From assembly GCA_963840855.1 (NCBI GenBank), contig CAWJBB010000087.1, positions 108,235 to 172,234 on the forward strand: a stretch of DNA of 64,000 nucleotides. The letters are read 5' to 3'. Below, piece by piece: positions 1,815 through 35,237 of the stretch. The DNA comes from an uncultured delta proteobacterium (GTDB lineage Bacteria > Desulfobacterota > Binatia > UBA9968). The notes below the pieces were generated by a model that searched no databases, had not been told where the DNA came from, and saw only the letters and a list, made by a program, of their open reading frames with translations. Each line of letters starts with the position of its first letter. The stretch's first letter is position 1. Position numbers and translations under genes: made by a program.

Positions 1815-2850
1815 ATGAGATTCGCAGAGCAAATGGACTTCCTACTTCGGGTTTTTGCTGCTGCTGGTAATGCCCGTCGGCGCCGTCGCCCAGGAACGTT
1901 ACATGATCGGTTACGCCGGGTTCGCCGGCTTCCAGGCGTCCATGTGGGCTGTCAAAGACCTGGGCTTACTCAACAAGTACGGTCTTGACGGTGAAGTGGT
2001 GATGCTGCCTGGTTCGATTCGGCAGATTCAGGCGCTGGTCAGCGACAGCATTCACTTTGGCCATGTCGATGCCGCGGGTTCGATACGGGCAATCACGGGG
2101 GGCGCGGATGTCGTGCTGGTCGGAGGATCGCTGAATAAGTTTCCTTTTAGTTTTGTCACGCAAAAAGAGATTCGCAAACCCGCGGACCTGGCGGGCAAGA
2201 AAATCGGTATCGTTGGCTTCGGCAGCGCCCACGATCTGGCCATGACGCTGCTGCTTAAAGAATGGAACATTCCCCGGCAATCTGTAACGATTCTGCAAAG
2301 CGGCGGGGCGGCAAACCGTCTCGTTGCCCTTGCCGCGAATTCGCTGGACGCCACGCTGCTGTCTTACCCGGAGATCAGCGAGGCGAACCGGATGGGTATG
2401 AACGTGTTGAGTGATTTCAACGAACTAAAGTCCGCGGACTATCCCATCACCGCCGTTGCAGTGCGCCGCTCCTTCTTGGAGCAAAAACGGGATACGGTAA
2501 AACGGTTCATGAAGGCCTATGCTGAGGGGACTCACCTGTTCATAACGGATAAAGAAAAGGCAAGTTCAGTTTACAAACGGCGACTGAAGCAAAATAACCC
2601 GAAAGCGCTCGAAGAGACGTATCAATACTTTGCTCCGAAGTTTTCTTATCCACCGCGGGTCTCCCAGAACGGACTGCGCAACACATTGGATTTGATCGCG
2701 ATAGAAAATCCCAAAGTCGCTACGAATCTCGGCAAGTATCTCGACGAAAGTATTTTAGACGAGCTGGAGAAGGAAGGGTTCTTTAAGCGAATACTGGGAA
2801 ATAATTCGCGGTTCCAAACGTTCAAAAGTTCAAAAGTTCAAGCCGGTTGA
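1815..2850 (+). CDS. ABC transporter substrate-binding protein, tandem paralog of 692-1675 (5' frameshift)
   Basis: Highly similar protein (QERYM.GYAGFAGFQ.SMW; YLDESILDELEKEGFFKRI). Confidence 0.85.
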
Positions 2851-2933
2851 GAACAAGCTATCGGAAATTCAAACCTCCGTTGGACGGTTTGAACTGACTT
2901 GAACGATTTGAACCAACCGACCGCAGGGAGGTT
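2808..2933. repeat. Intergenic inverted-repeat element, copy 3
   Basis: ttcaaa arrays, aacctccg, ttgaac arrays, ccgaccgcagggagg. Confidence 0.75.
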
Positions 2934-2934
2934 T

Positions 2935-3798
2935 ATGTTAAGTAGAATTCAACACGCGGCCATCGTCAGTGAGAACTTCGTGCGCGAGGCCAAATTCTAC
3001 GAGGCCGTGCTCGGCATGAAGCGGTCCAGGCCTGGTTCCGCCGAAGAAGAAAAAGCGATCCGGACCAACTACGCGGTCAGCATCAGCGATGGCTACGTCG
3101 GCGTCACGGTGATTGGACGAAAACCGGGATATGTTCCGGGCCTGCATCATTTCGGCGTCGACGTCGATGATGTTGACGAAGCGATTCGCCGGATCAAGAA
3201 AAACTATCCCGACGTCGCGGTGTCTGAAGCGGCCGTCGAACCGGCCCTTCGCGACCTATGGGGCCCACGATCCCGAAGGGAATTATTTTGATTAACGCAA
3301 GAAGGAATGGCTAACCGAAGAGACGTTTACGCGGCTCGATCTAACTCGCCGCAAGTGGTTCGACCTGGCTCACCACAGGTCGAGCCGCCGCGGCGCATCC
3401 ATCACATCAAACTGCGCGTGATGAACCCCGCCAACATCGCTGCATTCTATCGCGACTCGTTCGATTTGCAGGAAGCGGAGAAAGCGCTCGAAGATCCCAA
3501 CTTCTATCTCACCGACGGCAAAGTCACGCTGATCGTTGCGCCGTGGAAGATGAGCGACTTCGAAGGCGCGGGCATCGACCGGCCGGGGATCGAACATATT
3601 GGCTTCAAGGTCGAAAATGTCGAAGCCTTCAAGAAGGATCTAGCCGCCTTACGCGAAGCGAATCCCGAGATGCGCGAGCGCATCGTCAGCGAACCGAGCG
3701 AAGGCGAACGCCGCCTCGCTTTGATCGCTTCCTGCCGCCACGGCCAACACCAGTTCTCCAGTCCGGACGGGATCTTCGTGGATATTTGCGAGACATAG
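2935..3798 (+). CDS. Two-domain VOC (glyoxalase/extradiol dioxygenase) family protein, frameshift near 3225
   Basis: IQHAAI, GLHHFG.DVDD, HDPEGNYFD, IHHIKL, GIEHIGFKVE, SPDG motifs across joined ORFs. Confidence 0.8.
3331..3378 (+). repeat. Two tandem 24-nt palindromic units in-frame inside the VOC gene
   Basis: gcggctcgatctaactcgccgcaa / gtggttcgacctggctcaccacag; same T(T)CGA.NNN.CTC core as intergenic copies at 53391-53414 and 59732-59755 (minus strand). Confidence 0.65.
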
Positions 3799-4039
3799 GG
3801 TACAAAAAAGACCAGCCTAGTCAGCAAGGAACCTTCTTTGTGGACACAGTAATTTGGTTGGATCCGCGTCAAGATCTTTCAAGTCCTTGAAGTTTAAAGA
3901 TAATTTAGTCAATATTCATCGTGAGTCCTCTGCGTATTTGTGCCCTCGTTGTGGGGTTGTATCCGTTTTTAGTGTGCTGTAATATTGTGCTTGACAACAC
4001 ACATTAGCTATGGCTTAATTTCTCCCACGGAGGTGTGTC

Positions 4040-4309
4040 ATGGGTCGTGTGAACGTATTCTTGAAGGATGAATTGCTCGACGAGATCAACGAGGAAGCCA
4101 AAGAAGAAGGGACCAATCGAAGCGCCCTCATCCAGACAGCGTTGGAGAAGTATCTCGAAGGCAAGCGCCGTGAGCGCGAGGAGGAAGAAAAGCGGAAAAG
4201 GATGCAAGAGGCTTCGCGCAATATAGACGAGCTCGCCAAAGAGCTTGGAGACTGGAACCCCGTACCCATTATTCGCCACTTCCGCGATACAAATCTGAAA
4301 GGCGAGTAA
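4040..4309 (+). CDS. vapB: Ribbon-helix-helix antitoxin (VapB-like)
   Basis: RVNVFL.DELLDEI...NRSALIQTALEKYL RHH pattern; directly upstream of a PIN gene; TTGACA at 3991. Confidence 0.8.
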   Translation: MGRVNVFLKDELLDEINEEAKEEGTNRSALIQTALEKYLEGKRREREEEEKRKRMQEASRNIDELAKELGDWNPVPIIRHFRDTNLKGE

Positions 4310-4765
4310 ATGGTTGCTCCGTATCACCAAGGGTACGTACTCGATGCGTCCGTGGTTACCAAATGGTTTGTTGAGCGTAATGAACCCGATCGCGAGCGAG
4401 CCCTGGCGCTAAAAGAGATCCATGTATCAGGACGCTCCATCATCTACGTAATGGAACTGACCTTCTTGGAAGTGCTTAACGCTATCCGCTTCGGTTCGGG
4501 GACAAAGGAAGAGCAGGGTGCAAGAGCCATAGCTGGGCTTGTAGAGTTGCAGCTCGAGATCGTGCGTACTGATTTTCCATTACTCCGTAAAGCCAACGCC
4601 ATCGCCTGGGCCTACAAAATTACGATCTACGACGCTCTCTATGTTGCCCTCGCCGAGCAAGTGGGATATCCCCTCATCACCGCTGATGAAAAAATGATTA
4701 CGAATCTAAAGGGCCACAGTATCGTCGTCCCTTTGCGGGAATTCGAATTCAGGGCTGAAAATTAG
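4310..4765 (+). CDS. vapC: PIN-domain toxin
   Basis: VLDASV, EVLNA, IYDALYVALA, LITAD PIN motifs. Confidence 0.9.
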   Translation: MVAPYHQGYVLDASVVTKWFVERNEPDRERALALKEIHVSGRSIIYVMELTFLEVLNAIRFGSGTKEEQGARAIAGLVELQLEIVRTDFPLLRKANAIAWAYKITIYDALYVALAEQVGYPLITADEKMITNLKGHSIVVPLREFEFRAEN

Positions 4766-4814
4766 CGCTTATTGATGTTCTTATTGCGACACTAGGTGTC
4801 AGAGTAAAAGTACA

Positions 4815-5081
4815 ATGTCCCCGATTCCCGTTTCGATTCGATCTGATGTACTGGCGCAGACTCGCCGGCTGAATCCGCGTCAAGCGGGAGCGCTGGATCA
4901 CTTGCTCGCCCATGGCAAGCTGACTTTGGGCGAGCTGGAAAGTATCTTTCCCGACGTCAACCGCCGAACTCTACAGCGGGACCTGAAAGCTATGCTCGAT
5001 AAGAGCTGCTTCGGGAGGTGGCCACGGGACCGACCGACCCCAATCGCCACTATGTACTTGGGGAGCTGTGACAAGCTATGA
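4815..5081 (+). pseudogene. 3' remnant, DeoR-like HTH of the kind found at Fic-protein C-termini
   Basis: LNPRQ..ALD.L..HGKLT....FPDVNRRTLQRDLK; no upstream domain present. Confidence 0.55.
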
Positions 5082-5240
5082 CATGGAGCTGTGACATGCA
5101 TTTCTATCCCCTTTGGATCGCGAAATGGCGACCTCCGAGTCGCAATTGCAGTTTCTTAGCGCGAATGGCTGAAGCCGAACCGGTGGGCAAGGCGATGTCT
5201 TTTGGGAATTTTGATTGCGGTGAACTTCAGGGCGATTAAC

Positions 5241-5461
5241 CGAGGCATTTGATGACGCAGACCAAACGAAAGAAGCGCCAAGATCCGAAAAAGCGGAAGA
5301 TGCAGGAAGCGTCCCGTAAGATGGATGCGTTGGCGGAGAAGTTGGGGAAATCGGATCCTCAGGCAACTATCAGGAAATTTCGGGACACGAACTTGAAAGG
5401 TGACGGCTGATGAGCCAGACAATGAACGAACCCAATGTCAATCGCCGGACAAGGGCGACCG
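5241..5461 (+). repeat. ~220-bp direct repeat, copy 1 (copy 2 at 15951-16174)
   Basis: Shared sequence from cgaggcat through gtcaatcg and agggYgaccg. Confidence 0.9.
5252..5410 (+). CDS. 52-aa orphan mini-antitoxin (C-terminal half of the VapB at 4040)
   Basis: MTQTKRKKRQDPKKRKMQEASRKMDALAEKLGKSDPQATIRKFRDTNLKGDG aligns with KRKRMQEASRNIDELAKELGDWNPVPIIRHFRDTNLKGE; open frame with gagg RBS. Confidence 0.65.
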   Translation: MTQTKRKKRQDPKKRKMQEASRKMDALAEKLGKSDPQATIRKFRDTNLKGDG

Positions 5462-5744
5462 GTTGATTTGGCCTATTTGATAACGCTGGAAGCCATTTCG
5501 TCGAGGCGGCATCTTGTCCCGGTCCTCATACTTCGGACCAGTCCTCCCCATCCGGGCTTTTCCGTTTAGCATTTCGGAGTTTAGAAAATCTTCTTTATTA
5601 CAGAGATCTTAACTTAGGCTTTCCGCGATAAGCCATTCTGGTTAGCGAGTCTTTCGGTAATCGTAAACCTGCCCGTGCCCGAAGTCTACGCCCAAACACC
5701 GACCCGCCCAAGGCCCCCGCTGGTTATTACGGTTTCACTGGGTA

Positions 5745-5783
5745 TTGACAGTTCTTATCAGTATCTGGTAAATATTGGATACT
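5745..5783 (+). promoter_or_regulatory. Putative sigma70 promoter with overlapping inverted repeat
   Basis: TTGACA-N18-TAAATA; AGTATC-N12-GATACT over the -10; just upstream of the ggggagg RBS. Confidence 0.35.
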
Positions 5784-5806
5784 CACAATGTATGGGGAGG
5801 TTGGAA

Positions 5807-6860
5807 ATGATGCCAAAAGTCCTCGTGGATCCTGAACCTGCGCCTATCACGCTATTACGATAGAAGGGCAAGAGGTCGAAGTTCAATCTGCTATGCTTCC
5901 AATTGATGAAATCAAGCTCGACCCGGAGAATCCTCGTATAAAAAGAGGCCTAAAACCTCCGGTCACCCAAGATACCATAAGGAAATTCCTTTTAGAGCAG
6001 CCTGGTGTACCGGACTTACAGAAGCAGATCCGTGATAACGGTGGCCTGATCGAACAAATCTTTGTAAATCAGGCAATATCTGCGCTGTCGAAGGAAACTG
6101 TCGAGCCGCTATCTATCGAAGGCTTCGGGACGCTCAGCAAAGCGACTCGCGATGGCAAAAGATCCCTGCGCTAGTTCTGCCGGCAGAGATTAGTGACGAA
6201 CAGATCGCGATAGTGCGCGCCATTTTCCATGTGCAGCCGAAATAAAATCAGGTGGGGCGCCTATGAGCAGCAGGAGCACCTTTACGATATGGCGACCCGG
6301 CTCAAAATGGACATCCCCCGAATCGCCCTCCTTCTCGGTGTCAGCCAGAACCGACCGTCCGGAGACTAATTGAGGCGTATGAGGGCATGACCAAATATTA
6401 TGTCCCAAATGCTGGCTCTATCGAGGGACGGCGGGTTTGGTCTTACTTCGACGAGTTATTCAAGAATCCAGGTCTGAAAGAATTTCGAGCGAGCGCAAAG
6501 AATATGGAGCTATTTTCTCAATTAGTCAAAGAGAAAAAGATTCCTCGTGGTGCCGATGCTCGACAGCTGGCGAATATTGTGAACGACAGCAAAGCATTTC
6601 AGAAGCTTCAAGCTAACGGTTTTAAGCCGGCTCTTAAACAGGCAGGACGCAGCCAACCCGCGAAAGTCTATCCGCTGTTTAAGAAGATACGACAAGCAAA
6701 GGTGGCGTTTGAGAAGATTACACAGGCAGATCTCGAGGATATCCAGAGGCAAGCCGGCCAGCAGAGTGAGCTGCGTGAACTCTACCGCGCCCTCACGAAG
6801 GTCGCCAAATTGGCGAATATTTCGCTCAAGTCGGAGGCGGAGCAAAATGGCAAGAAGTAA
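5807..6860 (+). CDS. ParB/Srx-fold + HTH protein 1 (several frameshifts)
   Basis: Rebuilt: LDPENPR, NGGLIEQIFV, VEGNCRAAIYR, WQKIPALVLP, WGAYEQ, WSYFDELFK. Confidence 0.75.
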
Positions 6861-7886
6861 CATAGCTGCAACGGCAGCCGAAAAAGTGGTAGTGGACGAA
6901 ATCACGCTGGATGGACGTAAGGTGGCTGTGCGCAACGAAGAAATTCCAGTCGAACGCCTCCGACTTGACGCGCAGAATCCTCGCATTGCTAACACTGTCG
7001 CCTTTAGACGCGATTTAAAAGCCGATTTCGAAAGTGCAATTGAGGATCTGTTGTGGTCGGACCCAGATGTTCGCGACCTGTACCGGCAGGTACTTGTGAA
7101 TCGCGGACTCATCGAGAGGATCATCGTTACGACGGACTTTACCGTTGTTGAAGGCAATTGCCGACTGATTGTTTATCGGAAACTGCGAGAAAAGTATCCG
7201 GGTGAACCACATTGGATGAAAGTCCCATCACGAGTGCTTCCCGATGACATTAGTAAGCGCAATATTGCGTTGCTCTTGGCCCAGCTTCATGTCCAGGGGA
7301 AGAACGAGTGGTCTAGCTTCGAAAAAGCTGGGCACGTTTATAAGTTACACAAAGAATTCGCGTTAACTCAGGATGAGATTGCCCTGAGGCTTCGCATGTC
7401 AAAGTCCAAGGTGAATCAGCTCATCCGTGCTTTCGAAGCGATGAAGACAGTGTTCCTTCCACGATTCCCAGACCCCGCTAACGTTCACAAGTTTTCGTAT
7501 TTTGAGGAACTCTTCAAGAAACCTGAACTACGGGAATGGGCAATGAATGATGTTGATGCTGTTCACCGATTTGCTGGGTGGGTTGGACAAGCAAACTCTC
7601 GCAGGGCGTTCAAGTCAGAGACCTATCAGCCATACTTGCGAGTCCAGAGGCCTTGGCTGCACTTGAGCACGGCGGCTACGTCGAAGCGCGAAAGGTACTT
7701 GAAGAAGATGATCCGACAATTTCATCGCCACTGTTTAGAAAAATGGTCGAAATGACTGAGGCTCTTCGTAATGCACGTCTTGACGATATCCAACGAGCAC
7801 GGCCGGATGGTAGTCGCGCAGCACGAAGAATTGTACGTGATTTTCAGCAGGCATTAACCCGTTTTGTTCAGCTGAGTTCGAATTAG
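6847..7886 (+). CDS. ParB/Srx-fold + HTH protein 2 (frameshift near 7595)
   Basis: LDAQNPR, RGLIERIIV, VEGNCR, HVQGKNEWSSFEKA, HTH LTQDEIALRLRMSKSKV, KFSYFEELFK. Confidence 0.85.
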
Positions 7887-7905
7887 TTATACTCGGAGGA
7901 AATTA

Positions 7906-8918
7906 ATGAAGTACACACGAAATGTTCAAGGCGCGCTCGTCGAACTCGAGTTGGTTGAAGTAGATCCCAAAGCAGTGACGCTCGATCCCACGAACCCTCG
8001 GCTAGGATTCTCAATCCGCCAGCTGAACGAGGAGATGTGTAATGATGCTGCCTGCACCTTGCTTTTAACGAGTCAGGAAGACGTCGAGGAACTAAAACGC
8101 TCGGTAGTACTCTCCGGTGGTGTCCAGGAGCCGATCTACCTCCGTGCGAACAATGTTGTCGCCGAAGGCAATCGGCGAGTCGTCGCGATGCGCTTGGCGA
8201 AAGAAGAATATCCCGGTAATCCTCGATTCGAGACAATACCGGCATGGCTGATTCCCGCTGACACCCCTGAGTATGTGGTCCAAAATCTATTGAATGAAAT
8301 ACACCTCGGTTCCGTGCGAGGCTGGGCACCATATGAGAAAGCCCTACAATTGCGGGCATTAATTGCAAGTGGGCTTATCGAAGAGGAGGTTGCTGAGCGT
8401 TACCGGATGACGGCGCGCGACGTACGCCAGTATATTGCGGCAGCAGAGCTCATGGACCGCGAATATTTCCCGATTACGAAGGAACCTACAGATATCGAGC
8501 ATCGGGCAAAGTTTTCGTATTTTCTTGAATTCCATAAGAACACTAAGCTTCAAAAGCGTCTTCAAGACGATTCTAATTTAGCTATTCGCTTTGTTACTTG
8601 GGTGGCAGACGGTCGAATCAATACCGGTGAGCGAGTAGACGTTTGCCACGCATACTGGAATCCACCAGAGCTGTCGAGCTGCTCGAAAACGTCGGGTTTG
8701 ACACGGCTGAGGAGTATCTCAGGCAGCAACATCCGGAAGAACAAGAGCTCTATGCACTCCTGGAGAAAACACGAGGACGATTAGAATCGATGACCGTTAC
8801 GGAGCTCGACGAACTCGGACCGAGCCGGGAGCGTCTCCAGATTGTGCTCGGATTGCAGTATGCAATCGATAAAATTTTGTCCGCCGTGGAACACCTGGGA
8901 TCTGAAAAGTCGGTTTAA
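7906..8918 (+). CDS. ParB/Srx-fold + HTH protein 3 (frameshift near 8640)
   Basis: LDPTNPR, GGVQEPIYL, AEGNRR, HLGSVRGWAPYEKA, HTH EEEVAERYRMTARDV, KFSYFLEF. Confidence 0.85.
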
Positions 8919-9346
8919 TGACCTCGATTCAACATCAGATCCTCGCCTTTTGGGCTGCCAGGAAGATGACTTGGGATGGCTACTGGATAGCCGGATTTGA
9001 CGGCCAAAGGGCACCGCGGGACGACTGGAACAAATTACCGCCGCCACCGATTGTTTGCGGTGTACGTCCGGACGTTTGGGGTTACGACGACAACGGCACT
9101 CAAGTGGCGATAGGTGAGGCAAAAACCGGTGAGGATGTTGACACCGCACATACCCACGCACAGCTTTGGGTTTTTAAACAAATGCGAGTTCCCACGGGAC
9201 TACGCTGCCGTCTCTATATCGCGGTTCCCCAGTCATCGGTGCACGCGCTCGACCGAGTACTTGCAAGACGCGGACTAATAGGGATTCGCGAGATCGTTCG
9301 AATTCATGTTCCCGACATCTTTCTTCCTCAAAAGGAGGACGTGTGA
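8918..9346 (+). CDS. Putative PD-(D/E)xK nuclease-fold protein
   Basis: RPDVWG...IGEAKT...QL motif; TAATG and GTGA overlaps with neighbours. Confidence 0.6.
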   Translation: MTSIQHQILAFWAARKMTWDGYWIAGFDGQRAPRDDWNKLPPPPIVCGVRPDVWGYDDNGTQVAIGEAKTGEDVDTAHTHAQLWVFKQMRVPTGLRCRLYIAVPQSSVHALDRVLARRGLIGIREIVRIHVPDIFLPQKEDV

Positions 9347-10812
9347 TCAGTAATGCTCGCATCATTCCATTTACTTACCAGGCTGAGGGAACTAAGTTCC
9401 TTATATCGCGACCCGCCGCGGCTCTATTCGACGAGCAGGGGCTGGGCAAGAGCAAACAGCTCATCGACGCAGTTGCTCAAGAGGTTATGGCCGGAACCTT
9501 AGACGGTGCCCTCATCGTCTGCCCTAACACGCTGAAATCAAACTGGGCGAAAGAGATTGGACGATACTCAGCGCTTCCGTATGCCGTCTTCGGCAGTGGC
9601 AAAACGGCCCGAAGGCTGGCTTTCTCAAAATTGACAGCGACTTTCTACATCGTGAACTATGAGGCCGTTGTTCGCGAGGTCGTCTCGCTTCGATCGCTCC
9701 TTCGATTCAAGCGATTGGCGCTGGTCTTAGACGAGAGTCATAGGATCAAAACTCCGAACGCGCGAGTCACCAGGGCAGTCCATCGACTAAGCAGTCATGC
9801 CGCAAAGCGAGTAATCATGACCGGAACCCCGGTGGCCAACAAGCCGGAGGACCTTTGGAGCCAGTTATTTTTTCTCGATGGTGGCGGCGCGCTAGCAACC
9901 AATTTCGACGAGTTTCGGGGCCGTTATTGCTCCTCGTCCGGCGGTTACATAAATATTGATGAACTCCGAATTCGGCTATTACCGCTCGTGTTAAGACGGC
10001 TTAAGATTGATACCCTTGATCTTCCGCCCAAATACGTTTTTCCGGTTCCGGTGCTATTACAAGGCCGTCAGGCGGAGCTTTACAACCGCATGCGCCAAGA
10101 TCTTTACCTCTGGGTCCAGAGTCTCTCGGGGGAAAAGGTGCTAGCTAATGCTGAAAACATACTCGTTCGGCTACTGCGGCTCGTGCAACTCGCCGCAAAC
10201 CCCAAGCTCCTAGATTCGTCATATCAAGAAACACCGGCTAAGGTCCAGGCGCTAGATCAACTTATCGGGCAGATTATGGGGCAATCGTCCAACCAAAAAG
10301 CAATCGTGTGGACTTCTTTCCTCGGTAATATTCCAACGCTTTGTGATCGATATGCGCAGTTCGAACCAGTGCCATTCCATGGTGAGATGGACAATAGACA
10401 ACGTGATTTAGCTATTGACGCTTTTTACTCTAACCCGCGTGTACGCCTCTTTATTGGCAATCCCGCCGCGGGCCGGGAGGGACTTACGCTTACCTCTGCG
10501 AGCGTGGCGATTTACTTTGATCGATCATTCAACTTGGTGGATTATTTACAGTCACAGGACCGGATTCATCGACTCTCTCAAACCGAAGTATGCCAGATTT
10601 ATCTGCTTATCGCCGAGAACACGGTCGACGAGTTTATTGAGTTCGTGTTAGCCCAGAAGCATCGTCTTGCTCGCTATGTCCAACACGATAGCGATTCCAT
10701 CAATAGGGCTGACCTCACGCTAGCTCGGCCTAATGTATTGCGTGCTCTGCTCGACCGATTAATGGTTAAAAGCGACGGAAATGGATTGAGAAGACTCTAC
10801 AAAAGAAAATGA
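9343..10812 (+). CDS. SNF2-family SF2 ATPase/helicase (core only)
   Basis: DEQGLGKS, IVCP, LDESH, TGTP, EGLTL, QSQDRIHR. Confidence 0.9.
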   Translation: MISNARIIPFTYQAEGTKFLISRPAAALFDEQGLGKSKQLIDAVAQEVMAGTLDGALIVCPNTLKSNWAKEIGRYSALPYAVFGSGKTARRLAFSKLTATFYIVNYEAVVREVVSLRSLLRFKRLALVLDESHRIKTPNARVTRAVHRLSSHAAKRVIMTGTPVANKPEDLWSQLFFLDGGGALATNFDEFRGRYCSSSGGYINIDELRIRLLPLVLRRLKIDTLDLPPKYVFPVPVLLQGRQAELYNRMRQDLYLWVQSLSGEKVLANAENILVRLLRLVQLAANPKLLDSSYQETPAKVQALDQLIGQIMGQSSNQKAIVWTSFLGNIPTLCDRYAQFEPVPFHGEMDNRQRDLAIDAFYSNPRVRLFIGNPAAGREGLTLTSASVAIYFDRSFNLVDYLQSQDRIHRLSQTEVCQIYLLIAENTVDEFIEFVLAQKHRLARYVQHDSDSINRADLTLARPNVLRALLDRLMVKSDGNGLRRLYKRK

Positions 10813-10858
10813 CAATCGGCGATTACAGTGCGCAGATAAACCACCTTCGATGGGTTTG

Positions 10859-12423
10859 TCATTTCGCCCGAAGGAGTCTTAGGATTTTGCTTACATAATC
10901 ATGGGCAACCGAGGTATCACTGATCACCTCATACATGGCCGAGAATACTTCGTTGTAAGCCTTTTTCTTCGCTGGCGCCAGGCGTTTAAACAGGATGCCC
11001 TTTGTCTTCTCGGACGCTCGGTCCACTTTTCGCCGTAAGTCAAAAACTCGTTTGAGTACCGTATCTCGTTCCCCATTTTGCGGCCAATGCTTTTCTATTT
11101 TCGCCTGCTGCTTGCTGATTAATTCGCGAAGTGTGTCTACATGCTTTTGCCGAAAGGGAAAATCGTAAGGCATAGAGCGAACCGTATCGAGATCATTTTC
11201 GATCTTCTGTAGGTTCTGCATAGTCGCCTTAATCGAATTTCTAGTTCCGGAACAAGCTCTGCAGGTACGGGATAGCTGAGTCGCGATTTTGGAGATGTGC
11301 GACTGGAAATTTACATAGTGGACGCTATGTTCGAAATTGTCTCTGCGACCGTTCGGAAGAATATTTTTATTCACGATATGAAACTCGCCGACACACCAAC
11401 TATCGAATCGAGGCTCAGCGAACAGCGATGCTACGATATCATTTTCTCCGACCTGAATGTTCCCTAGCCGCAGTCGTAATCCCCCGAAATTTAGTTTCTT
11501 CGGGAGAGCACCGGATAAGCATCGTGCAACACCCACCCAACGGCATCGAGCCCATCGACTCCTGGAATTCGAAGAACTCAATTTTGAGAAATTATCGTTC
11601 AGAATAGGCGTTCGTGCAAAGGCGTTTGATGCGGTCGCTGCACGGATATGTTCCCATTTATGGTTAGCTCAATTCCTTCTCCTACTCCGTGCTTATGGAG
11701 AAGTTCGTCGATTCTGTAACCGTAATCGAAGTTTGTCGAAATTTCACAGGGGCTACTTGTGATAGATACTCGAAGACGGCGTCTGAATTAAGCAGCACAT
11801 AATTTGATTAAAGAACTTTACGAAGCTGGATTCAAAAAATATGCATATCGCCAAAGACCATGGCAGAAGCAGTACCGCATGACGATTTCTCCGGACTGCA
11901 ACTTGGATACGTGCGCTGGCCACTCTGAGTTTCAGAAGATCCCTTGGCTTCCGTCCACTGCAGATCACTTCAGTCACAGGCTCGCGTGCTTCGGCACGCC
12001 CGCGAACGCGATCCTGACAATAACCCCCGCCCTGCCAGGCGGCCTCCTGCCCGCGAAAGCCGCGGCCTTCCCGGTTGCTGTAGGGCCTATGGCTAGGAGG
12101 CGCTGTACGGAATGGTGTGACAAGATGGAATGGAAGCGCCGTTGTCACGGATGCTGATTGTTTACTGCGGCAGTCTCAATGTGAACGTCGACACGTATAC
12201 TCTTGGTTTCCAGCAAAAATGGCGTTTCCGCGCGCTTCATCGATGGCGTCCGTAGCATTTTGTATGTCTCACAATAATCGTTGAGCAGGTCAACAAGTAG
12301 GTCGCCTGCGTAAGAAGTTCAAGAGAGGAGTAGTGTCCTACAAGGGCATCGTCCTTAGTCGAGGTACTGCTCACACCCTTCCTGAGAAGGGACAGCCTTG
12401 AACGGCGGGTCGGAGACTGTCAT
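10859..12423 (-). CDS. GHKL (HSP90/MutL/MORC-like) ATPase, 5' half heavily frameshifted
   Basis: Minus-strand fragments QNATDAIDEA, ISIRDNG, RGFRG..RLAG.GYCQ; C-terminal LRLRLGNIQVG, PRFDSWCVGEFHI, LPNGRRDNFE; GGAGG + ATG at 12423. Confidence 0.7.
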
Positions 12424-14031
12424 GCAGCCTCCGTCGAACCAGCATCTTGGACTCGTTTGATCGTCCGGTATGGAGTAGTCGGATTTCTGTTTTAGCTTGA
12501 GCGATGCTCGCGGCATATCGACCAGATTTCTTGCTCTTTTTTCCTCTGGCAGCGGTACATAGAATTCAAGGATTGAAGCGGTTTGCGCTTTGCTTTATGT
12601 AAGATTTCTTGACGGAACCAGAACTGGCTGAGCTCACAGGAGGTGGAAGGACAATTAATCCCGCTCTTTCACCATGGCTTGGTCTTTAAAAAACTATTAG
12701 GCCAAGTGATTCGGCAAACCGGCCACACCGGCAGAGCTCTTCATACCAGACCCTATTGAAGATGGAATCCTACAGTCGGGATGACACGGCGCTCAAAATG
12801 TTGTGCAGAATCACAAACACACGCTTGAAGAATGAAGGTGCACCGCTAACGATTCAGTCAGTCGCTTTACGAAGTATGCAGTCTGCATCAATCTCAGAAA
12901 ATATATGTTCCAATTCGGTCCGACATAGGATACGGTCCTTTTGATTTCGTTCGTTGGTAACGCATCGGAAACAAAAAATTATTATGTACCAATTCTTCGT
13001 TAAGGTCAATATTTCGCCACATTCAGGTGATACAGATCGCTTGTGGAATCATGGAAATTGTGAGCGTGTAATTTGACAGTACGCAGAGACCGATTTCATG
13101 GGCATCACAAATACCCTCAGTTTAGTACGGCTTACGTAAACCGATGTCATAGAAGGCAAATTATCACGGATCAATGTCAAATCTTGCTCATTTCGCGTAA
13201 ATACATCGGATCTTTGCATAGAATCCGAGCATCAACACCTTGGTTAAAATCTACTCGGCGCTGGACAGGGACTCGACTAGGACGCGTCAGCTTGGCACCA
13301 GGCGTGAACCCTAGATCACGTATTTCGGCGATGATGTTCTTAAAATTGGGCGAGGCCACAATGTTATTGTCCATGAGTGTGAGGTCTTTTTTCGGTCCAT
13401 ACCGCTCGTCAATACCTCTTACGATGCTAATGATCGAGGTTACATCGCGCTGATCGCCTTCGAGCTTCGGCACCCCGCAAAAATGGCATTTTCGTACGCA
13501 CCCACGGGACGCGTATGCGAAGTACGCGTCGTGAACTGGATACACGTACTCAGTCTTGATCTGATCAAGAATTGAGTAATCCGGAACTAAATCCTCGATC
13601 GGAGTTCCCGTGCAGTCGTCTGAATAGAACTCTTCCGCGAAGTCATCTAACTGCAATGCGATTGCTGGTGGTTCAGAAAGAAGGCCTTTGATAAAACGCA
13701 CACCGCTCCACTTAGACTCTTCCACAAATGACTCATGCATTAGTGAAGCAGCGATGCCGCCTACAAAAACCTTGCTTGGTTGGTTCTGAGACGCGGTAAT
13801 CGCAAAGTCGATGGAGCGGGAAATAGTTTTCCATTCGAAGGAGAAAAGGGTCGTCACGTAGATTCGATCCCAGACGATCTCGAATATCGTTTTGTCTTCC
13901 TCTCCCTTAATAAACCGAACATTATCCTTGTTTCCCCATGGCCCATGGTAAGCGGCCAGCTTCATTAGACCTAAAGGCGGGTACTTGTTTTTGTACCCCG
14001 GCTCAATCAAGAGTATGTTCTTTTTAGACAT
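12420..14031 (-). CDS. Radical SAM enzyme with B12-binding-like N-terminus (3' half frameshifted)
   Basis: ILLIEP..KNKYPPLGLMKLA; SRGCVRKCHFC (CxxxCxxC); DFNQGVDAR; downstream fragments FPMRYQ, VSGAPSFFKRVF, IFNRVWYEE; ATGA overlap with the GHKL gene. Confidence 0.8.
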
Positions 14032-14244
14032 CGTTTATCATTGTGCTCGCGGCCGGGTCTGGCTTTTTTAACCAGTCGTCCTTTTGATGGTTGGCCAATT
14101 AAGAGGCCGGCTCACCAAGACGGAAGTAGCGGTTGGCTCCGTGCTCTAAATCTGGATTTGACGGTTAAAGCCGAGAGTGGGCTGAATTTACCACAAAAGC
14201 TCGTTCTGCGGAACCTTTTTTCCTCTGTAACAGGGTGATTTTCT

Positions 14245-14480
14245 TTATATTGTTCAAACGGTATCCCCGTCTTCCGCGAGAGATGAACAAGTCATCCACC
14301 AGCGGCTTGATCAATGGACTGCCTTCTCTGCTGCTGCTCGCCTCTGCTTCTCGCTCAGGATCGCCGGGGTTGAGGGGACCGTCGGCGCCGGGGCGGGTTG
14401 GTATTGCGAAATGACGCGGCTCCAGTCGTCGAATCGTTTTCGGAATCTGTCGTTGTTCGATGGAGCCAGCGACCGGCAGG
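14245..14480 (-). pseudogene. Degenerate 3' remnant of an Ldh_2-family dehydrogenase
   Basis: Fragments DDW..FRNT, PAPGADGPL.PGDPEREAEA, PLIKPLVDDL, ISRKTGIPFE match the C-terminus of 45986-47098. Confidence 0.7.
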
Positions 14481-15003
14481 GACGCTGACTGACAGCTGGT
14501 TACCGCAGGGGCGGATGAGCCGAGCAGATTGCAGTCTTAAGGATGTGTACCTATTGTCACTTGATTGCGTGTGAGGCAATTTGGATGCAACGAGATACAA
14601 TCGTGCTTCGCCGTTGACCCGGAGCAGGAGGCTTTATTCATTTCCGGATTTGGTTATGACGGTCATGCGGTGTGACTCTTGTGCATTCTATTTTCCAGAA
14701 ATGCCTCGGAAGGGGATTTATTCTAGTATACAATGCAACCGCGAAGATCCAGCTCGGCGGCAGGACGCCCAGCTGCTGGCTTACCTTTTATTGCCTAAGT
14801 CGCGCACCGTATGAACGGGTGACGTTACCAGGCCATTCCAAATCACACTCGATTAATTCGCCCATTTTGGTTTTTTTGGACCTGTTTTGGTCGATGAAGT
14901 CTGGAAGGCGGGAATTTTACACGTCCCCAGTGCTGGTGTATTGTGGGTGTTGGATTTGGGAGGCCAGCTCAGTTCCAAGGCTGGATGAATAGGAGAGAAG
15001 CCG

Positions 15004-15246
15004 ATGGCAGAAAAAATGGAAATTGTGCGAGCCCTCCAAGGTTTGCCAAAGGATGCCCTGATAGAGGTCAAGGAGTTCATCACTTCCCTGAAAAAATGCA
15101 GAGGCAAAAGACGTGCTGCCGATCGTAACGGAGATACTTTGGCCAAAAAACAACTCTCTGTGATCAAGAAGTGGGCTGGGACCAGTCTAAAGGCAGGGTT
15201 TTCAGGGAGAGATCATGACACCGTCCTGTATAAGGATAATACGTGA
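15004..15246 (+). CDS. Putative antitoxin
   Basis: 80-aa ORF overlapping a PIN gene (GTGA); C-terminal S.R.HD.VLY motif. Confidence 0.7.
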   Translation: MAEKMEIVRALQGLPKDALIEVKEFITSLKKCRGKRRAADRNGDTLAKKQLSVIKKWAGTSLKAGFSGRDHDTVLYKDNT

Positions 15247-15659
15247 TCTTCGTCGACACTGGCGCGTGGTTTGCCGTCGCGGTCCGTAATGACCCAGATC
15301 ACAGCGCCGCCATGAAATGGCTGCAAAGAAATCGCGAGCCATTGGTTACCACGGACTATATTTTAGCGGAAACGGCGACGCTGATTCGGATGCGGGACAA
15401 AACGGCGCGCGGTCACCGATTGGCTGTGCGAATTGCGACTTCCATACTCAGAGAAGAATCCGCGATCTTTCAAAAGATTACCGAAACAGATCTTCACAAA
15501 GCTTTGCAGATATTTCGAGACTATTCCGAGCACTTATTCAGTTTTGTTGACTGCACAAGCTTTACAGTAATGGACAGGCTTGGCATCACTCACGCGTTCG
15601 CTTTTGATCGCCACTTTGACGAGTATCCCGGACTCCTCAAGCTGCCTCTAAAAGAATAA
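15243..15659 (+). CDS. vapC: PIN-domain toxin
   Basis: IFVDTGAW, TTDYILAET, SFVDCTSF, AFAFDRHF. Confidence 0.9.
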   Translation: MIFVDTGAWFAVAVRNDPDHSAAMKWLQRNREPLVTTDYILAETATLIRMRDKTARGHRLAVRIATSILREESAIFQKITETDLHKALQIFRDYSEHLFSFVDCTSFTVMDRLGITHAFAFDRHFDEYPGLLKLPLKE

Positions 15660-15699
15660 GCTTCCTCGCGACGTAGGGGATTCATTAGGAGCGCGGACG

Positions 15700-15950
15700 A
15701 CTTGTGCCGATAACCTGATCGCCGAGGAGAATCGATCTCATCCTCGCGACCCATGCTTGGTTCGAGCTGGAAGAGGCTATTGATAGCCTTTCCCGCGTCC
15801 TCACCGCCGGTGGGATTGATCTCTAAACTGGATTTTTTAGCGTCGGCTAGAAACTCCGGATCCTTCATGGTCTCCATGAAAGATGTTTGGAGAATTTTTA
15901 CGCGCTCTTTCGGGGTGCCCGGCGGAACCGCGTATAAACCCGCACCCCAA
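15700..15950 (-). pseudogene. 3' remnant of a TctC/Bug-type substrate-binding protein
   Basis: YAVPPGTPKERVKIL..F.ETMKDPEFLADAKK; truncated at the start of the 15951 repeat. Confidence 0.7.
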
Positions 15951-16174
15951 CGAGGCATGTGATGCCGGAGAGCAAACGAAAGAAGCGACGAAGATCCAAA
16001 AACGCGGAAGATGCAGGAAGCGTCCCGTAAGATGGACGCATTGGCGGAGAAGTTGGGAAAGTCGGATCCTCAGGCAACTATCCGGAAATTTCGGGACACC
16101 AACTTGAAAGGTGACCGGCTGATAGCTCAGCAATGAACGAGCCCATCGTCAATCGATCCAACCGAGGGTGACCG
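15951..16174 (+). repeat. Direct repeat copy 2, carrying a second mini-antitoxin (15962-16136, one extra base)
   Basis: Encodes RKMQEASRKMDALAEKLGKSDPQATIRKFRDTNLKGD, identical to copy 1 over this stretch. Confidence 0.9.
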
Positions 16175-16401
16175 CCGCATCGATTGGGGCGTGCTGTCAG
16201 ACTTAGCGTCAGCGTAGACATTTGCGACGCAAAGGTCGGAACTATCCAGACGAAAAACCCTCGCTGAGTCCGCTTCGTGCGATTGCCTGGAGATCAAACA
16301 CCCTTATCAACAAGGACCTGTTACCCCAAACACCTTTATTTTTTTGCTGACCTTTGTTATTGTCATCGCCAATGTGGCGATGCCTCGGATGAACTGATCA
16401 T

Positions 16402-18545
16402 ATGACGCTGGACACCTTGAAAGACATCGAGAAGCTCGAAGGGGATCTGTGGGACGCCGCGGATGAATTGCGCGCGAACTCAAAGCTCACCGCAAACGAG
16501 TACTGCATGCCTTTGCTTAGGCGTCATCTTCTTTGCGACACGCCGCCAATCGATACAACGAAGCGCTGCGGACAGATTGAGGCGATTCAGGCCGCCGGGA
16601 AGATGCCGAAACGTCCTCTCTAAAAATCGCGGACTTCAAAAAACGCAGGCGGGCAATGATGCTGCCGAAGGAAGCGCGCTACGAAGAACTGCTCGCTCTG
16701 CCGAAGGGCTCCGATGTTGGGGTGCCAGCCGACTCGTAGCGGCGATGGAAGCCATTGAAAGCGCAAGAACATCGAGAGCGGACTAAGGAACAGCTCCCAA
16801 GGATTACGAAAGTTTGAGAACGAGGTGCTGGAAGACCTGCTCCGCGTTTTCGACAGCGAGCTGCTCCGCACCGCCAGCGGCGACGTGTTCGGCCGCATCT
16901 ACGAATACTTCCTGATGAAGTTCGCCGATGCAGGGCGCGCAGGACAATGGCGAGTTCTTCACGCCGCCCTCGCTCGTGCAGATGATCGTCAACGTCATCG
17001 AGCCGGACCACGGCATCGTCTTCGACCCCGCGTGCGGCTCGGGCGGCATGTTCGTGCAGACCAGCCACTTCATCGAGCACGCGGCCAGAGACACCGCGCA
17101 GCGGGTGACCTTCTACGGGCAGGAGAAGAACCGCGACCACTATCCGCCTGGCCAAGATGAACCTCGCCGTCCACGGGCTGGAGGGCGACATCGGCGAAGG
17201 CCAACACCTACTACGAAGACCCGCACGAACTCTTCGGCAAGTGCGACTTCGTCATGGCCAATCCGCCGTTCAACGTGGACAAGGTGGACGCCGAGCAAGG
17301 TGAAGAACGACCGCCGTCTGCCGTTCGGCCTGCCGGGCGTGAACAAGGAGAAGAAAGTCTCCAACGGCAACTACCTCTGGATTTCCTACTTCTACAGCTA
17401 CCTGAACGAGAAGGGCCGCGCCGGTTTCGTCATGTCGTCGCAGGCCAGTCAGCGCCGGGCACGGCGAGGCCGAGGTGCGCCGCAAGATGGTCGAGACCGG
17501 CGACGTGGACGTGATGATCTCCATCCGCTCCAACTTCTTCTACACCCGCACCGTGCCCTGCGAGCTGTGGCACTTCGACAAAGGCAAGCCCGCCGAGCGC
17601 CGCGACAAGGTGCTGATGCTCGATGCGCGCAACATCTACCGCAAAGTCACGCGCAAGATTTACGACTTCAGCCCCGAGCAACTGCAGAATCTCACGGCCA
17701 TCGTCTGGCTGTATCGCGGGCAGTCCGACCGATTCATCGCGCTCGTGCAGCAACACCTCGAACGCCGCTGCACCGAAGCCGCCGCCATCGCGGACAAAAC
17801 CGCAGCGTTCGAGAGCATCGCTCGTCGACTCTGCGGAGCGCCGACGACGTTCGCAAAGACCGTCGATGACCGACAGACTCGCCGTTGCGCGAAGCAGAAA
17901 GCGTCCTGTCGAGCGGCGCCGAGCTGACGCGATGCGCAAGGCGTGTTTGAAGTCGACCGACAAGATGGACTCGCCGGCATCGCCAAGGATATGGAAGAAG
18001 CCGAAGCCACTACCCAGCGACGATCGACCGAACAGCAAAACTCGCTCGCAGAGCTTCGAAGCCTCGCCGACGGGCTCCGCGACCTCGTGAAGGACGTGGA
18101 CCTGGTGTTCAAACTCGCCGCTCGCGTCGGTGGACGCGCCGCGGAGGATCACGCCAACGCGAGGACGGCGACGACTGGGACGACGTCGGCCACGAGCCGC
18201 GCCACAGGCTGAAGAAGGAACTCGAAGCGGCGCAAGGAGGCGGTCGAACAACTCAAGCACCGCCTATTTCGAGCGGCAGCCGACTGGCTGCTCTACGATT
18301 TCCCGGCGCCGAAACTGCTGGCCGTGCCCGGCCTGGTGAAGCTGGTCGACCGCGAAAGACATTGAAGCCGCCGACTGGAGTCTCACGCCGGGCCGCTACG
18401 TGGGCGTTGCGCCGCCGGAAGTGGATGAGGATTTCGATTTCGAGCAAACCCTGCGCGACATCCACGTCGAACTGGCCGACTTGAACCAGGAGGCCGCCGC
18501 GCTAGCGGCGAAGATTCAGAAGAATTCGAGGAGCTTGGTGTATGA
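16402..18545 (+). CDS. hsdM: Type I R-M methyltransferase (m6A), frameshifted
   Basis: [53 protein letters not shown]. Confidence 0.9.
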
Positions 18546-19726
18546 GTGGCGGACCTCGCAGGCGAATGGCGATCTGGCGACGTTCTTTCGTGCACATGCT
18601 CCGTATCAGCAGGCGCAGAGTATGGATGGTGATATTCCCGGTCATTTCGTCATCAAGGAATCACCGGCATACACAGATGAATTGCTGAAGGCTGCAGGAG
18701 GACCCGGGTGTCGTCATGGTCGCTACGGAACATTGGGTGAAGTATTTCCCTATCGCTACACGACTATTGGCCCCTGAACACCGCGATTGTAGTCAACGAC
18801 CTCAAAGGGAACCATCCGCAATTCGTACTGATCCATAATTTCCTGATACACGTCCTTGCCAACTCCAGAGCAGATTAAGGCGACGCGCTCCGGCAATCAA
18901 CAAGAAACGTCCAAACATGAACTTTAGCGCTGTCGACCGTCCCGTGCCGACAGCCAGATTCAAGGATGCAATCGCCGACATGCTCTCCGCCTACGACGAA
19001 TTGATAGAGACCAACCGGCGGCGGATGGAGTTGCTGGAGGAGCGGCGCGGTTGCTTTACCGGGAGTGGTTCGTCCGCCTCCGCTTCCCCGGCCACGAACA
19101 CGCCCGCATCACCAACGGCACGCCGGCGGGCTGGAGAAAAAATCACTCCGGCGCAACTGTGCGATTCTATTGATTACGGCTATACGGCCAGCGCCCAGAG
19201 AAGAAAGAAGTCGGCACCCAGAGTTTCTCCGCATTACCGATATCGTTCCGCAAGTCTATCATTGGTCTTCTGTCCCTTACTGTGAAATTCCTGACAACAA
19301 GCGGGAAAAGGTCCCTGGTTTACGAGAAGGTGAACATTGTCATCGCCAGAACTGGTGCAACGGTAGGTTATGCTAAACGGCTTCATTAAGCGTCATCCCG
19401 GAAGCTGTTTTCGCGTCTCTATTCTTTTTGGTTCGGGTTACGCCTCAAGCTCAGAAGTTTGACGACCTCATGGTTGGGATTTTTCGTTGAATCAAGAAGA
19501 CTACAAGAAATCACGTCCAGTCCAACGCACACGGGGCGGGGCAGCGTCAGCCGAAATGCAAACGCGAAGAGTGCTCTCAGGGGCTTCAAATTGTTTTTGT
19601 GTTCCACCCATCCAGCATTCAAAAGCTCTTTCGGGCTAATCTGTCGAACCAATCTTTGACCCAGCGCGAGTCTGCTGCAAATCCAAAACCAAAAGCTGCA
19701 AAGCCGCCCGCGACCTGCTGCTGCCG
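18542..19726 (+). CDS. hsdS: Type I R-M specificity subunit, heavily frameshifted
   Basis: IADMLSAYDELIETNRRRMELLEE; REWFVRLRFPGHE; FLRITDI; IARTGATVG; RDLLLP. Confidence 0.8.
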
Positions 19727-20664: not shown

Positions 20665-20670
20665 TCCCGC

Positions 20671-35001: not shown

Positions 35002-35237
35002 CTTCGTTCGGTCTAATATTGCAATCGACGAGGGATTCTCGCTCGCGCCGCAAACCGGCGCAGTCATATGCAGCAATTCGGAAATTTGCTCGAAGTAGCC
35101 ACGCTCGAACTTTGAAGTTGGAACTTTTGAACCGCCGATAGGCCTTGAGCCGCGCGAGTTGCTGGAACGAAACGTCTGGAACAGGATTGAACCGCAGATT
35201 CTTCCAAATAGCCAATATCATGTCTGACTCCAAAGCG

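Follow-up and report, generated by a model that had tools for sequence, protein, structure and literature searches.

What do the seven genes clustered at positions 5836-14031 of a 64,000-nucleotide stretch of DNA from an uncultured delta proteobacterium (here called the window; positions 108,235 to 172,234 of contig CAWJBB010000087.1, assembly GCA_963840855.1) form together, and has such a combination been described before? An earlier reading of the letters alone, referred to here as the sequence-only reading, had proposed an undescribed system in which three ParB-like proteins, a small nuclease and a SNF2 ATPase face a radical S-adenosylmethionine protein (rSAM) and a GHKL ATPase. The claim of an undescribed system survives every check run, and the system is larger than first described. 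Its intact form in relatives consists of two modules, the first with a DGQHR protein, rSAM and GHKL, and the second with two or three ParB-like proteins, a nuclease of ~140 amino acids (aa) and a SNF2 ATPase of ~480 aa. The cluster is conserved and horizontally spread, and occurs in defence-island or plasmid contexts. The copy in the window is non-functional as assembled, with no working DGQHR, rSAM, GHKL or ParB frame. By analogy with the Dnd and Dpd systems, we see an even chance that the window holds a damaged copy of a widespread, unnamed, horizontally mobile conflict system that combines modification and restriction.

Gene cluster and its relatives

Five of the seven predicted genes lie closely packed on the plus strand (5836-10812), three paralogs of ~340 codons followed by a 142-codon and a 489-codon gene, and rSAM and GHKL lie on the minus strand.

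5836..6860, plus strand: ParB-like paralog 1 (ParB1), located by profile and tblastn; at least three frame changes and an in-frame stop at 6243-6245
6847..7886, plus strand: ParB-like paralog 2 (ParB2), located by family profile; one frameshift near 7575-7596
7906..8918, plus strand: ParB-like paralog 3 (ParB3), located by family profile; one frameshift at ~8637
8918..9346, plus strand: predicted stand-alone PD-(D/E)xK nuclease, 142 aa; frame open
9343..10812, plus strand: predicted minimal SNF2-family ATPase, 489 aa; frame open, with GLGK and DE(S)H motifs
10859..12410 (upper end approximate), minus strand: predicted Hsp90-like GHKL ATPase; C-terminal half open (10859-11668), N-terminal ATPase half degraded, with at least three frame changes
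12415..14031 (lower end approximate), minus strand: predicted B12-type rSAM; residues 1-284 open (14031-13177), the rest degraded

The tight coupling claimed for the plus-strand genes was borne out at the junctions, where the ParB1 stop and the ParB2 ATG overlap by 14 nucleotides (nt), ParB3 and the nuclease share TAATG, and the nuclease and SNF2 share GTGA. An ATGA coupling had also been stated for rSAM and GHKL. It is not visible in the window because the junction there is degraded; in the intact relatives L011 and L015 (locus numbers of this analysis) the two genes do overlap.

Relatives were collected by a search seeded with SNF2 (17 genome loci and 80 metagenome loci) and by a search seeded with the rSAM protein of a Variovorax isolate (27 further genome loci), and all loci were scored with family profiles built for this analysis. 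Clustering at 95% nucleotide identity reduced 109 loci to 87 clusters, and the tally was restricted to loci of at least 12 kb. After this de-replication, 19 metagenome and 23 genome loci remained, and rSAM lay beside SNF2 in 18 and 20 of them, respectively. The exceptions were L019, which holds an unrelated SNF2; L016, cut short by the end of its contig; L014, where the fetched DNA upstream of the nuclease holds only part of one ParB; and L047, where the DGQHR gene and a gene for a 654-aa GHKL protein reach the limit of the fetched sequence. In the metagenome set seeded with SNF2, the nuclease adjoined SNF2 in 64 of 66 loci, and three ParB genes together with the nuclease were present in 44 of the 48 with at least 3.7 kb upstream. 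Where at least 6.4 kb was available upstream (n = 36), rSAM was present in 35 loci, GHKL in 34, and DGQHR in 29. GHKL was adjacent in 24 of 27 rSAM-seeded loci, the three without it being distant Firmicutes rSAMs, and 15 of the 24 carried the ParB/SNF2 module as well. By these counts, the genes co-occur far beyond chance and are inherited together as a unit across many phyla.

At locus L011 of Variovorax (2125-11389), a single strand carries eight genes, which encode DGQHR (343 aa), rSAM (527 aa), GHKL (519 aa), ParB1-3, the nuclease, and SNF2. The first two junctions, from DGQHR to rSAM and from rSAM to GHKL, are overlaps of stop and start. The seven genes of the sequence-only reading are thus present as one cluster, to which the intact form usually adds an eighth, the DGQHR gene overlapping the rSAM start. 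The system comes in at least three architectures, often with a further gene pair described below.

Type A, the type of the window: ParB1, ParB2, ParB3, nuclease, SNF2
Type B: ParB, nuclease, SNF2, ParB, often with one more DndB-like protein in front
Type C: a ~765-aa DndB-domain protein in place of the SNF2 module (Novosphingobium aromaticivorans pNL1, L025, L027, L029)

Type B forms a seven-gene single-strand operon on plasmid pR132505 of Rhizobium leguminosarum bv. trifolii WSM1325, where the whole locus spans 9828-21617 and counts nine genes. Locus L033 also carries the rSAM module without SNF2, with other DndB-domain proteins instead. The order and strand of the modules differ between loci; they lie on the same strand in L011 and L015, are convergent in the window, and have a downstream placement in L012. 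In L074, a different module of DGQHR, a 656-aa GHKL and a B12-type rSAM stands beside the same module of three ParB genes, nuclease and SNF2. This variant module was observed at L074:6613-13334 and L047:46-3127 and contains, besides DGQHR and a HATPase_c_3 protein of 654-656 aa, a 471-aa protein without a Pfam family and a 569-aa B12-binding radical SAM protein (PF04055, 2e-20). Separately, type-B operons preceded by an extra DndB-domain protein of 378-404 aa were noted at L023:17295-19046, L037:17095-18883 and L030 ~17389-18057, with an additional ~196-aa protein without a Pfam family in L023 and L037.

A coupled gene pair encoding a PIN_8 protein (~640 aa) and a second Hsp90-like GHKL protein (GHKL2, ~520-540 aa) recurs beside the rSAM module.

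L011:11636-15174: PIN_8 and GHKL2 pair; also in L007, L012, L013, L022, L024, L041, L042, L127 and L128

GHKL2 is ~31% identical to the first GHKL, and the pair lies beside all three architecture types in many loci. Neither PIN_8 nor GHKL2 matched a PADLOC model. The pair may be a third module or a separate undescribed two-gene system.

The shuffling of order and orientation is what would be seen if rSAM-GHKL-DGQHR, ParB-nuclease-SNF2 and PIN_8-GHKL2 were independent systems piled up in defence islands, and the rSAM modules of L025, L027, L029 and L033, which have full flanks and lack SNF2, fit this too, as does the patchy presence of the PIN_8-GHKL2 pair, which among loci of at least 12 kb occurs in only 2 of the 19 from metagenomes and 6 of the 23 from genomes. 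However, adjacency of rSAM and SNF2 in 38 of 42 non-redundant loci is far above island co-location, the four exceptions being those listed above, and in L011 and pR132505 a single strand carries the full set of seven or eight genes, each overlapping the next or almost touching it. Independence of the modules is considered improbable.

Component proteins

The domain calls of the sequence-only reading hold for PD-(D/E)xK, SNF2, radical SAM and GHKL, and ParB-like is a probable assignment with weak scores. For ParB1, the family profile matched 5845-6075, 6081-6236 and 6354-6821 in different frames, and the tblastn pieces P1a-P1d matched ParB1 orthologs of relatives. ParB2 was matched at 6874-7596 and 7575-7877 (two frames, 50-60% identity to ParB2 orthologs) and ParB3 at 7894-8637 and 8637-8900 (two frames, 61-70% identity to ParB3 orthologs). 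Among 33 aligned paralogs, LDPxNPR, EGNxR (N31 P32 R33, G89 N90 R92) and W141 were invariant, and S205/E209 of FSYFxE were at least 90% conserved, so that three diverged paralogs with shared motifs were rightly recognized. In a maximum-likelihood tree, ParB1, ParB2 and ParB3 formed separate clades with support of 94/95, 98/97 and 100/100, and they are therefore long-retained, non-redundant paralogs; ParB3 grouped, with moderate support (83/63), with the type-B paralog that also adjoins the nuclease.

The predicted architecture of these proteins is a ParB N-domain, a helix-turn-helix (HTH) and a helical C-domain. ParB2 reached 19.7 bits against Pfam HTH_ParB, under the cut-off of 22.6, and the paralog profile matched the solved ParB structures 7bnr and 7bnk weakly (E 0.0017-0.0018). 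In hhalign comparison with canonical ParB, NPR, GxxR and the HTH lined up (E 0.0039, probability 8.6%). The N-terminal part of ParB2 matched PADLOC PDC-M38A (9.3e-13), and ParB3 matched PD-Lambda-5_A at domain level (2.7e-8). A ParABS partition system was considered and rejected, as no ParA-type protein was present among the Pfam-scanned or RefSeq-annotated neighbours.

In the nuclease family, D28, D52, E67-A68-K69, D73 and Q82 were invariant in 17 of 17 sequences, D52 and E67-x-K69 corresponding to the catalytic motif pattern. The AlphaFold2 model (predicted local distance difference test [pLDDT] 92.6) gave Foldseek matches to EndoMS/NucS 5gke (the best, E 7.4e-4, TM ~0.45), XisH, MspJI, BstEII, EcoO109I and SfsA. 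The modelled structure identifies the 142-aa protein, earlier singled out by its PD...EAK motif, as having the PD-(D/E)xK nuclease fold. The sequence matched no family in Pfam or PADLOC, and its profile gave chance matches only against PDB sequences. The family comprises 1157 representatives at E<=0.001, of which the best 150 are 78-165 aa long.

The 489-aa protein matched Pfam SNF2-rel_dom (7.6e-31, 107.7 bits against a cut-off of 24.9) and Helicase_C (4.1e-12, 46.8 against 23.5), and G33 L34 G35 K36 and D130 E131 were invariant in 15 sequences, including that of the window. It is, as judged from its sequence, a minimal SNF2-family ATPase. PADLOC matches to ZorD (1.3e-48), DpdE (4.5e-36) and DrmD (1.5e-24) covered only the SNF2 portions of these models.

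The open part of rSAM in the window (13177-14031), which includes CxxxCxxC, shares 68-76% identity with orthologs from other phyla; the family profile covers only positions 1-282 of 525. C176, C180 and C183 were invariant in 27 of 27 sequences, with no other invariant cysteines. The Pfam PF04055 score (21.3) was below the cut-off of 29.5, and scores against NCBIfam B12/rSAM models were far under theirs. The structure model (pLDDT 86.7) matched MiaB, MgmA, TsrM, AprD4 and OxsB at E 2e-10 to 1e-8, and CysS, RimO and TokK were also among its neighbours. The best solved structure by query-length-normalised TM-score (0.52) was the diol dehydratase AprD4, which we take to bind no cobalamin. On the strength of this model and of the invariant cysteines, rSAM is assigned to the radical SAM superfamily, with a predicted N-terminal Rossmann domain of the cobalamin type preceding the rSAM core. 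Identity as a methylthiotransferase of the MiaB/RimO kind was rejected: no N-terminal auxiliary three-cysteine cluster was present among the 27 aligned sequences, the CxxxCxxC cysteines are the sole invariant ones, and rSAM is therefore not a methylthiotransferase. The rSAM family is large (over 6,600 protein clusters at E<=1e-20), and the source names among the matches listed were only 'hypothetical', 'radical SAM protein' and 'Radical SAM core domain-containing protein'. At the C-terminus (e.g., L011:4660-4732), an acidic tail, PxDExVEDAGL, follows a low-confidence linker. Conserved throughout the main rSAM clade, this tail resembles a peptide by which a partner protein could dock.

The GHKL profile matched the window only at 10868-11518, corresponding to positions 301-518 of 522, and weak tblastn traces of residues 48-302 were found in three frames between 12265 and 11515. 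Intact orthologs reached 36.2 bits against Pfam HATPase_c_3 (cut-off 25) and matched HtpG 2ior (6.3e-11) as well as TRAP1 and Hsp90 N-domains, and the N-box and glycine-rich motifs were invariant in 24 of their sequences. These sequence features place the intact orthologs among Hsp90-like GHKL (Bergerat-fold) ATPases. In ESM Atlas the protein fell only into clusters named 'ATP-binding protein, HATPase_c_3', and its RefSeq name is 'ATP-binding protein'. The DGQHR protein matched TIGR03187 (2e-32) and the DndB-family model PF14072 (30.7 bits against 29.1); against DpdB it gave 1.2e-10 in PADLOC and 47.3 bits with NCBIfam NF041060, whose cut-off is 300. It is classed as a DndB/DpdB-like protein of the ParB superfamily, whose members bind nucleotides.

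Viperins are rSAM defence enzymes with a role in nucleotide or small-molecule chemistry, and the diol dehydratase AprD4 heads the solved structures by query-normalised TM-score. A defence system could accordingly be imagined in which rSAM makes a modified nucleotide or small molecule in a viperin-like way, ParB and DGQHR sense or consume nucleotides, and SNF2 and the nuclease act as effector. Nevertheless, rSAM is unrelated in architecture to the viperin type, having a B12-type N-domain like that of MiaB, TsrM and MgmA, and it is coupled to a DGQHR/DndB-type protein and to GHKL. GHKL ATPases are linked to DNA (MutL/MORC), and the modular pairing resembles Dnd and Dpd. From the published side, Ophion, a radical SAM defence system that combines rSAM with PHP and PRTase (in the accessible portion of bioRxiv 10.1101/2025.09.30.679545), and the NTPase activity given for ParB-superfamily domains in sections of PMC5512222 would suit this explanation, while DndB-type proteins are tied to DNA-modification systems in parts of PMC12839542 and PMC3632139. 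The chance that rSAM serves such small-molecule chemistry is rated as low.

Distribution, surroundings and damage of the window copy

Hosts of the system include Acidobacteriota, Alpha-, Beta- and Gammaproteobacteria, Nitrospirae and Chthoniobacterales, and further a Cyclobacteriaceae metagenome-assembled genome (MAG), a 'delta proteobacterium' MAG and two Woesearchaeota MAGs; soil and freshwater metagenomes hold a large number of family members. Intact copies are found in cultured, non-pathogenic soil bacteria, namely R. leguminosarum WSM1325, N. aromaticivorans pNL1 (without SNF2) and a Variovorax isolate. Among 72,556 plasmid records 12 carry a copy, 7 of them predicted to be conjugative; ParB3 relatives were found in none of 50,697 records of a phage collection. 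The neighbours of L015 are ArdC and a TraG/VirB4-like P-loop ATPase, and that of L033 is a type II restriction-modification (R-M) system. A good many loci among those fetched come from large contigs of chromosome size.

A role outside defence was weighed against this distribution, either in plasmid or integrative and conjugative element biology (partition, establishment, anti-restriction) or in epigenetic regulation or repair of the host chromosome. HTH-bearing ParB-like proteins are classic partition proteins, ArdC and type IV secretion genes stand beside L015, 7 of the 12 plasmid copies are conjugative, and invading elements also use ParB and SNF2 domains (PMC5512222, in the portion available). 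Yet no ParA partner was found in any scanned or annotated operon, many loci come from contigs of chromosome size, and the nuclease is a fixed component. The Methylobacter locus broken by insertion sequences (IS) and the damaged copy in the window likewise show the pattern of dispensable, costly defence genes. Such a role is unlikely.

The cassette in the window has 49.7% G+C, compared to 56.2% for the genome (6.5 points lower), and is flanked by VapBC-type and PIN toxin-antitoxin genes and type I R-M fragments. Both the AT-rich character and the surroundings agree with what was first noted. A Pfam scan of the translated window pieces found any family in 3 of 14. The window contains no tRNA gene, and therefore no tRNA-linked integration site. 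A direct repeat (5241-5404 and 15951-16115; 94% identity over 125 nt, ~220 nt at lower identity) encloses a 10.7-kb segment comprising the cassette and a PIN toxin-antitoxin pair, and its unit at 5297-5404 is arranged differently in contigs of related strains. The repeat may be an insertion or recombination boundary, or else a duplicated gene end. At 16500-18500 and 23744-26350, a segment with 61-64% G+C, compared to 50-55% around it, overlaps an open reading frame (ORF) whose first ~70 residues match N6_Mtase; HsdR-like pieces lie in separate ORFs. The picture is that of a type I R-M system in fragments, into which foreign or chimeric DNA seems to have been inserted. The minus strand at 34411-36462 may hold another long gene with frameshifts, as four ORFs of 190-225 codons overlap there in different frames.

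In the cassette itself, only the nuclease and SNF2 frames are open, with catalytic motifs kept (1.9 kb clean). Reading ParB1 takes at least three frames, and one frameshift interrupts each of ParB2 and ParB3. The rSAM gene is undisturbed for 855 nt, after which 11 stops in the same frame and poor similarity follow, and eight 1-nt insertions or deletions (indels) relative to a related strain are listed in 12927-13177 (within the next ~300 nt, counting to the ORF boundary at 13177). No DGQHR gene, PIN_8/GHKL2 pair or second copy of the system was found in a six-frame profile search of the 7.1-Mb genome, which is 94% complete. The closest relative in metagenome contigs shares at most 67% protein identity, and none is near-identical. 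More than the suggested polishing of frameshifts is at issue, as the C-terminal half of rSAM and the N-terminal half of GHKL are unrecognizable to the family profiles and DGQHR is absent genome-wide.

The damage is patchy, and real decay and local assembly error are therefore about equally likely. If the frameshifts, stops and hyper-divergent patches of the window copy are local assembly or consensus errors, the organism carries an intact system. Uniform decay of a pseudogene predicts otherwise than 855 clean nt of rSAM followed by 11 stops and 8 indels, or than 1.9 kb of clean nuclease and SNF2. Furthermore, in related strains (four metagenome runs from four studies, ~85-99% alike) each listed contig piece that covers a ParB frameshift region has a gap against the window: the contig X1, from a strain 96% alike, has 3 gaps relative to the window at 6084-6574, in the ParB1 region, and 1 at 8473-8713, X2 has 1 at 8226-8690, and X3 has 2 at 6842-9283. 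The lengths of degraded patches are nearly equal in related strains (171 and 169, 149 and 148, 1617 and 1597 nt). On the other hand, the assembly is clean overall, with 6.1% of positions genome-wide lacking a 100-codon open frame compared to 44% in 12001-14000; DGQHR is nowhere in the 94%-complete genome; similarity to related strains ends exactly at the rSAM start codon; and the neighbouring type I R-M genes are also fragmentary. The 12 listed indel sites are not obviously at homopolymers, and a homopolymer origin of the indels was dropped as unsupported by them. Natural inactivation was seen in the finished chromosome of Methylobacter sp. sgz302048. In that locus (L028:7698-17269), IS elements broke the system: DGQHR is interrupted by an IS3-family element and a ParB gene by an IS21-type IstA/IstB pair, and of SNF2 only the last ~150 residues are left; rSAM and GHKL are intact.

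Proposed function and comparison with known systems

PADLOC 2.0, NCBIfam, RefSeq annotation and the literature were checked for a name of the gene combination. None was found in the three databases, nor in the literature outside survey supplementary tables. PADLOC 2.0 gave domain-level matches only (PDC-M38A, PD-Lambda-5_A, the SNF2 parts of ZorD, DpdE and DrmD, and DpdB for DGQHR) and no match for the nuclease, rSAM or GHKL, and no NCBIfam equivalog cut-off was reached. The available portions of PMC10853773, PMC3226654, PMC3632139, PMC12839542, PMC5512222, the Tiamat preprint (10.64898/2026.09.30.754977) and the Ophion preprint do not describe the combination. The statement that this is not a named system is in line with these results, and the genes co-occur in other genomes without matching a described system in PADLOC 2.0, NCBIfam or the literature.

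A function in defence or conflict is likely. That it follows an R-M-like logic with a DNA mark made by rSAM is a possibility of somewhat less than even probability, drawn by analogy. The first module (DGQHR, rSAM and GHKL) would place a radical-SAM-dependent mark on the cell's own DNA, with DGQHR and the GHKL ATPase in charge of nucleotide-driven handling of DNA, a role like that of DpdB towards DpdA; in the accessible part of PMC12839542, DpdB is a ParB-like ATPase driving base insertion by DpdA. The ParB-like proteins would be nucleotide-gated DNA binders or clamps sensing the status of DNA, and would recruit the SNF2 motor and the nuclease, by which unmarked incoming DNA would be destroyed. 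ParB-superfamily domains are given as NTP-regulated DNases or NTPases in conflict systems such as GmrSD and Osa in the available text of PMC5512222. Self-marking and attack on unmarked DNA would be consistent with a shuffled module order, with the exchange of the rSAM module beside an unchanged ParB/SNF2 module, and with the replacement of the ParB/SNF2 module by other DndB-domain proteins.

Several observations weigh against this proposal. The nearest solved folds of rSAM act on tRNA, proteins or small molecules. To our knowledge, no DNA-modifying radical SAM enzyme belongs to the family of this rSAM. DGQHR was absent from 7 of 36 otherwise complete loci, and in L025, L027, L029 and L033 the rSAM module has full flanks and no ParB/SNF2 module, so that the two modules need not occur together. 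The scores behind the ParB assignment are weak, with no match to Pfam ParB_N and HTH_ParB below its cut-off. As to current function, the system in the window is unable to act as assembled, its owner having neither DGQHR nor a second copy.

The most specific form of the proposal is tentative and rather unlikely, namely that this would be the first R-M-type immunity based on a cobalamin-type rSAM, with a new DNA mark, ParB-like clamps reading it, and SNF2 and a minimal nuclease acting on unmarked DNA. If true, a B12-type radical SAM would join methylation, phosphorothioation and 7-deazaguanine as a chemistry separating self from foreign DNA, possibly with a new DNA modification. ParB-like proteins, best known as CTP-gated partition clamps, would then provide target recognition within an immune machine made of nuclease and translocase. 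What gives the finding its value is the family, whose intact members in cultured bacteria with finished sequences can be tested directly.

Among known proteins, canonical ParB has the domain order predicted for the paralogs, an N-domain, an HTH and then a helical domain at the C-terminus, and NPR, GxxR and the HTH align. In contrast to canonical ParB, there is no ParA here, three diverged paralogs lie in one operon with a nuclease and a translocase, and the scores are weak (E ~0.002-0.004). The N-terminal region of the paralogs resembles PD-Lambda-5_A (2.7e-8) and PDC-M38A (down to 1.3e-13), but only ~200 of the 473 and 715 model positions are covered.

Zorya type I ZorD and DISARM DrmD share the SNF2 core (1.3e-48 and 1.5e-24). 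ZorD, by its PADLOC description a SNF2 helicase with an Mrr-like nuclease, combines the two activities that nuclease and SNF2, as neighbouring genes, would contribute in the present system, whereas the nuclease here is a separate 142-aa protein. Zorya type I was rejected, with only positions 446-884 of 908 of ZorD covered, 84.6 bits against 1500 for the NCBIfam ZorD model and no ZorABC; none of the DrmABC partners is present. Viperins are single enzymes that make chain terminators. With viperins and Ophion the system has in common a radical SAM enzyme as an obligatory part of a conflict system, and it differs from them in rSAM architecture and partners.

The Dnd and Ssp systems likewise have a DndB-family (PF14072) protein with modification genes, and their modification module pairs with interchangeable restriction modules; the chemistry here, in contrast, would be radical-SAM based. 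Membership in Dnd was rejected, since DndA, DndC, DndD, DndE, DndFGH and SspE are absent among the scanned neighbours and only the DndB-family domain is shared. Dpd membership was rejected as well, the DpdB equivalog scoring 47.3 bits against 300 and no TGT-family match being present among the scanned neighbours. We know of no Dpd counterpart for the three ParB paralogs and the small PD-(D/E)xK nuclease. Unlike Dpd, the system has a B12-type rSAM and an Hsp90-like ATPase in place of TGT-like DpdA and of DpdC, and its SNF2 protein has ~480 aa compared to 850-1290 for the DpdE models. In common with Dpd, it sets a DGQHR/ParB-like protein (PADLOC DpdB, 1.2e-10) beside a putative modifying enzyme, has a SNF2-type helicase in the restriction part (DpdE, 4.5e-36), and takes the form of two-module mobile islands.

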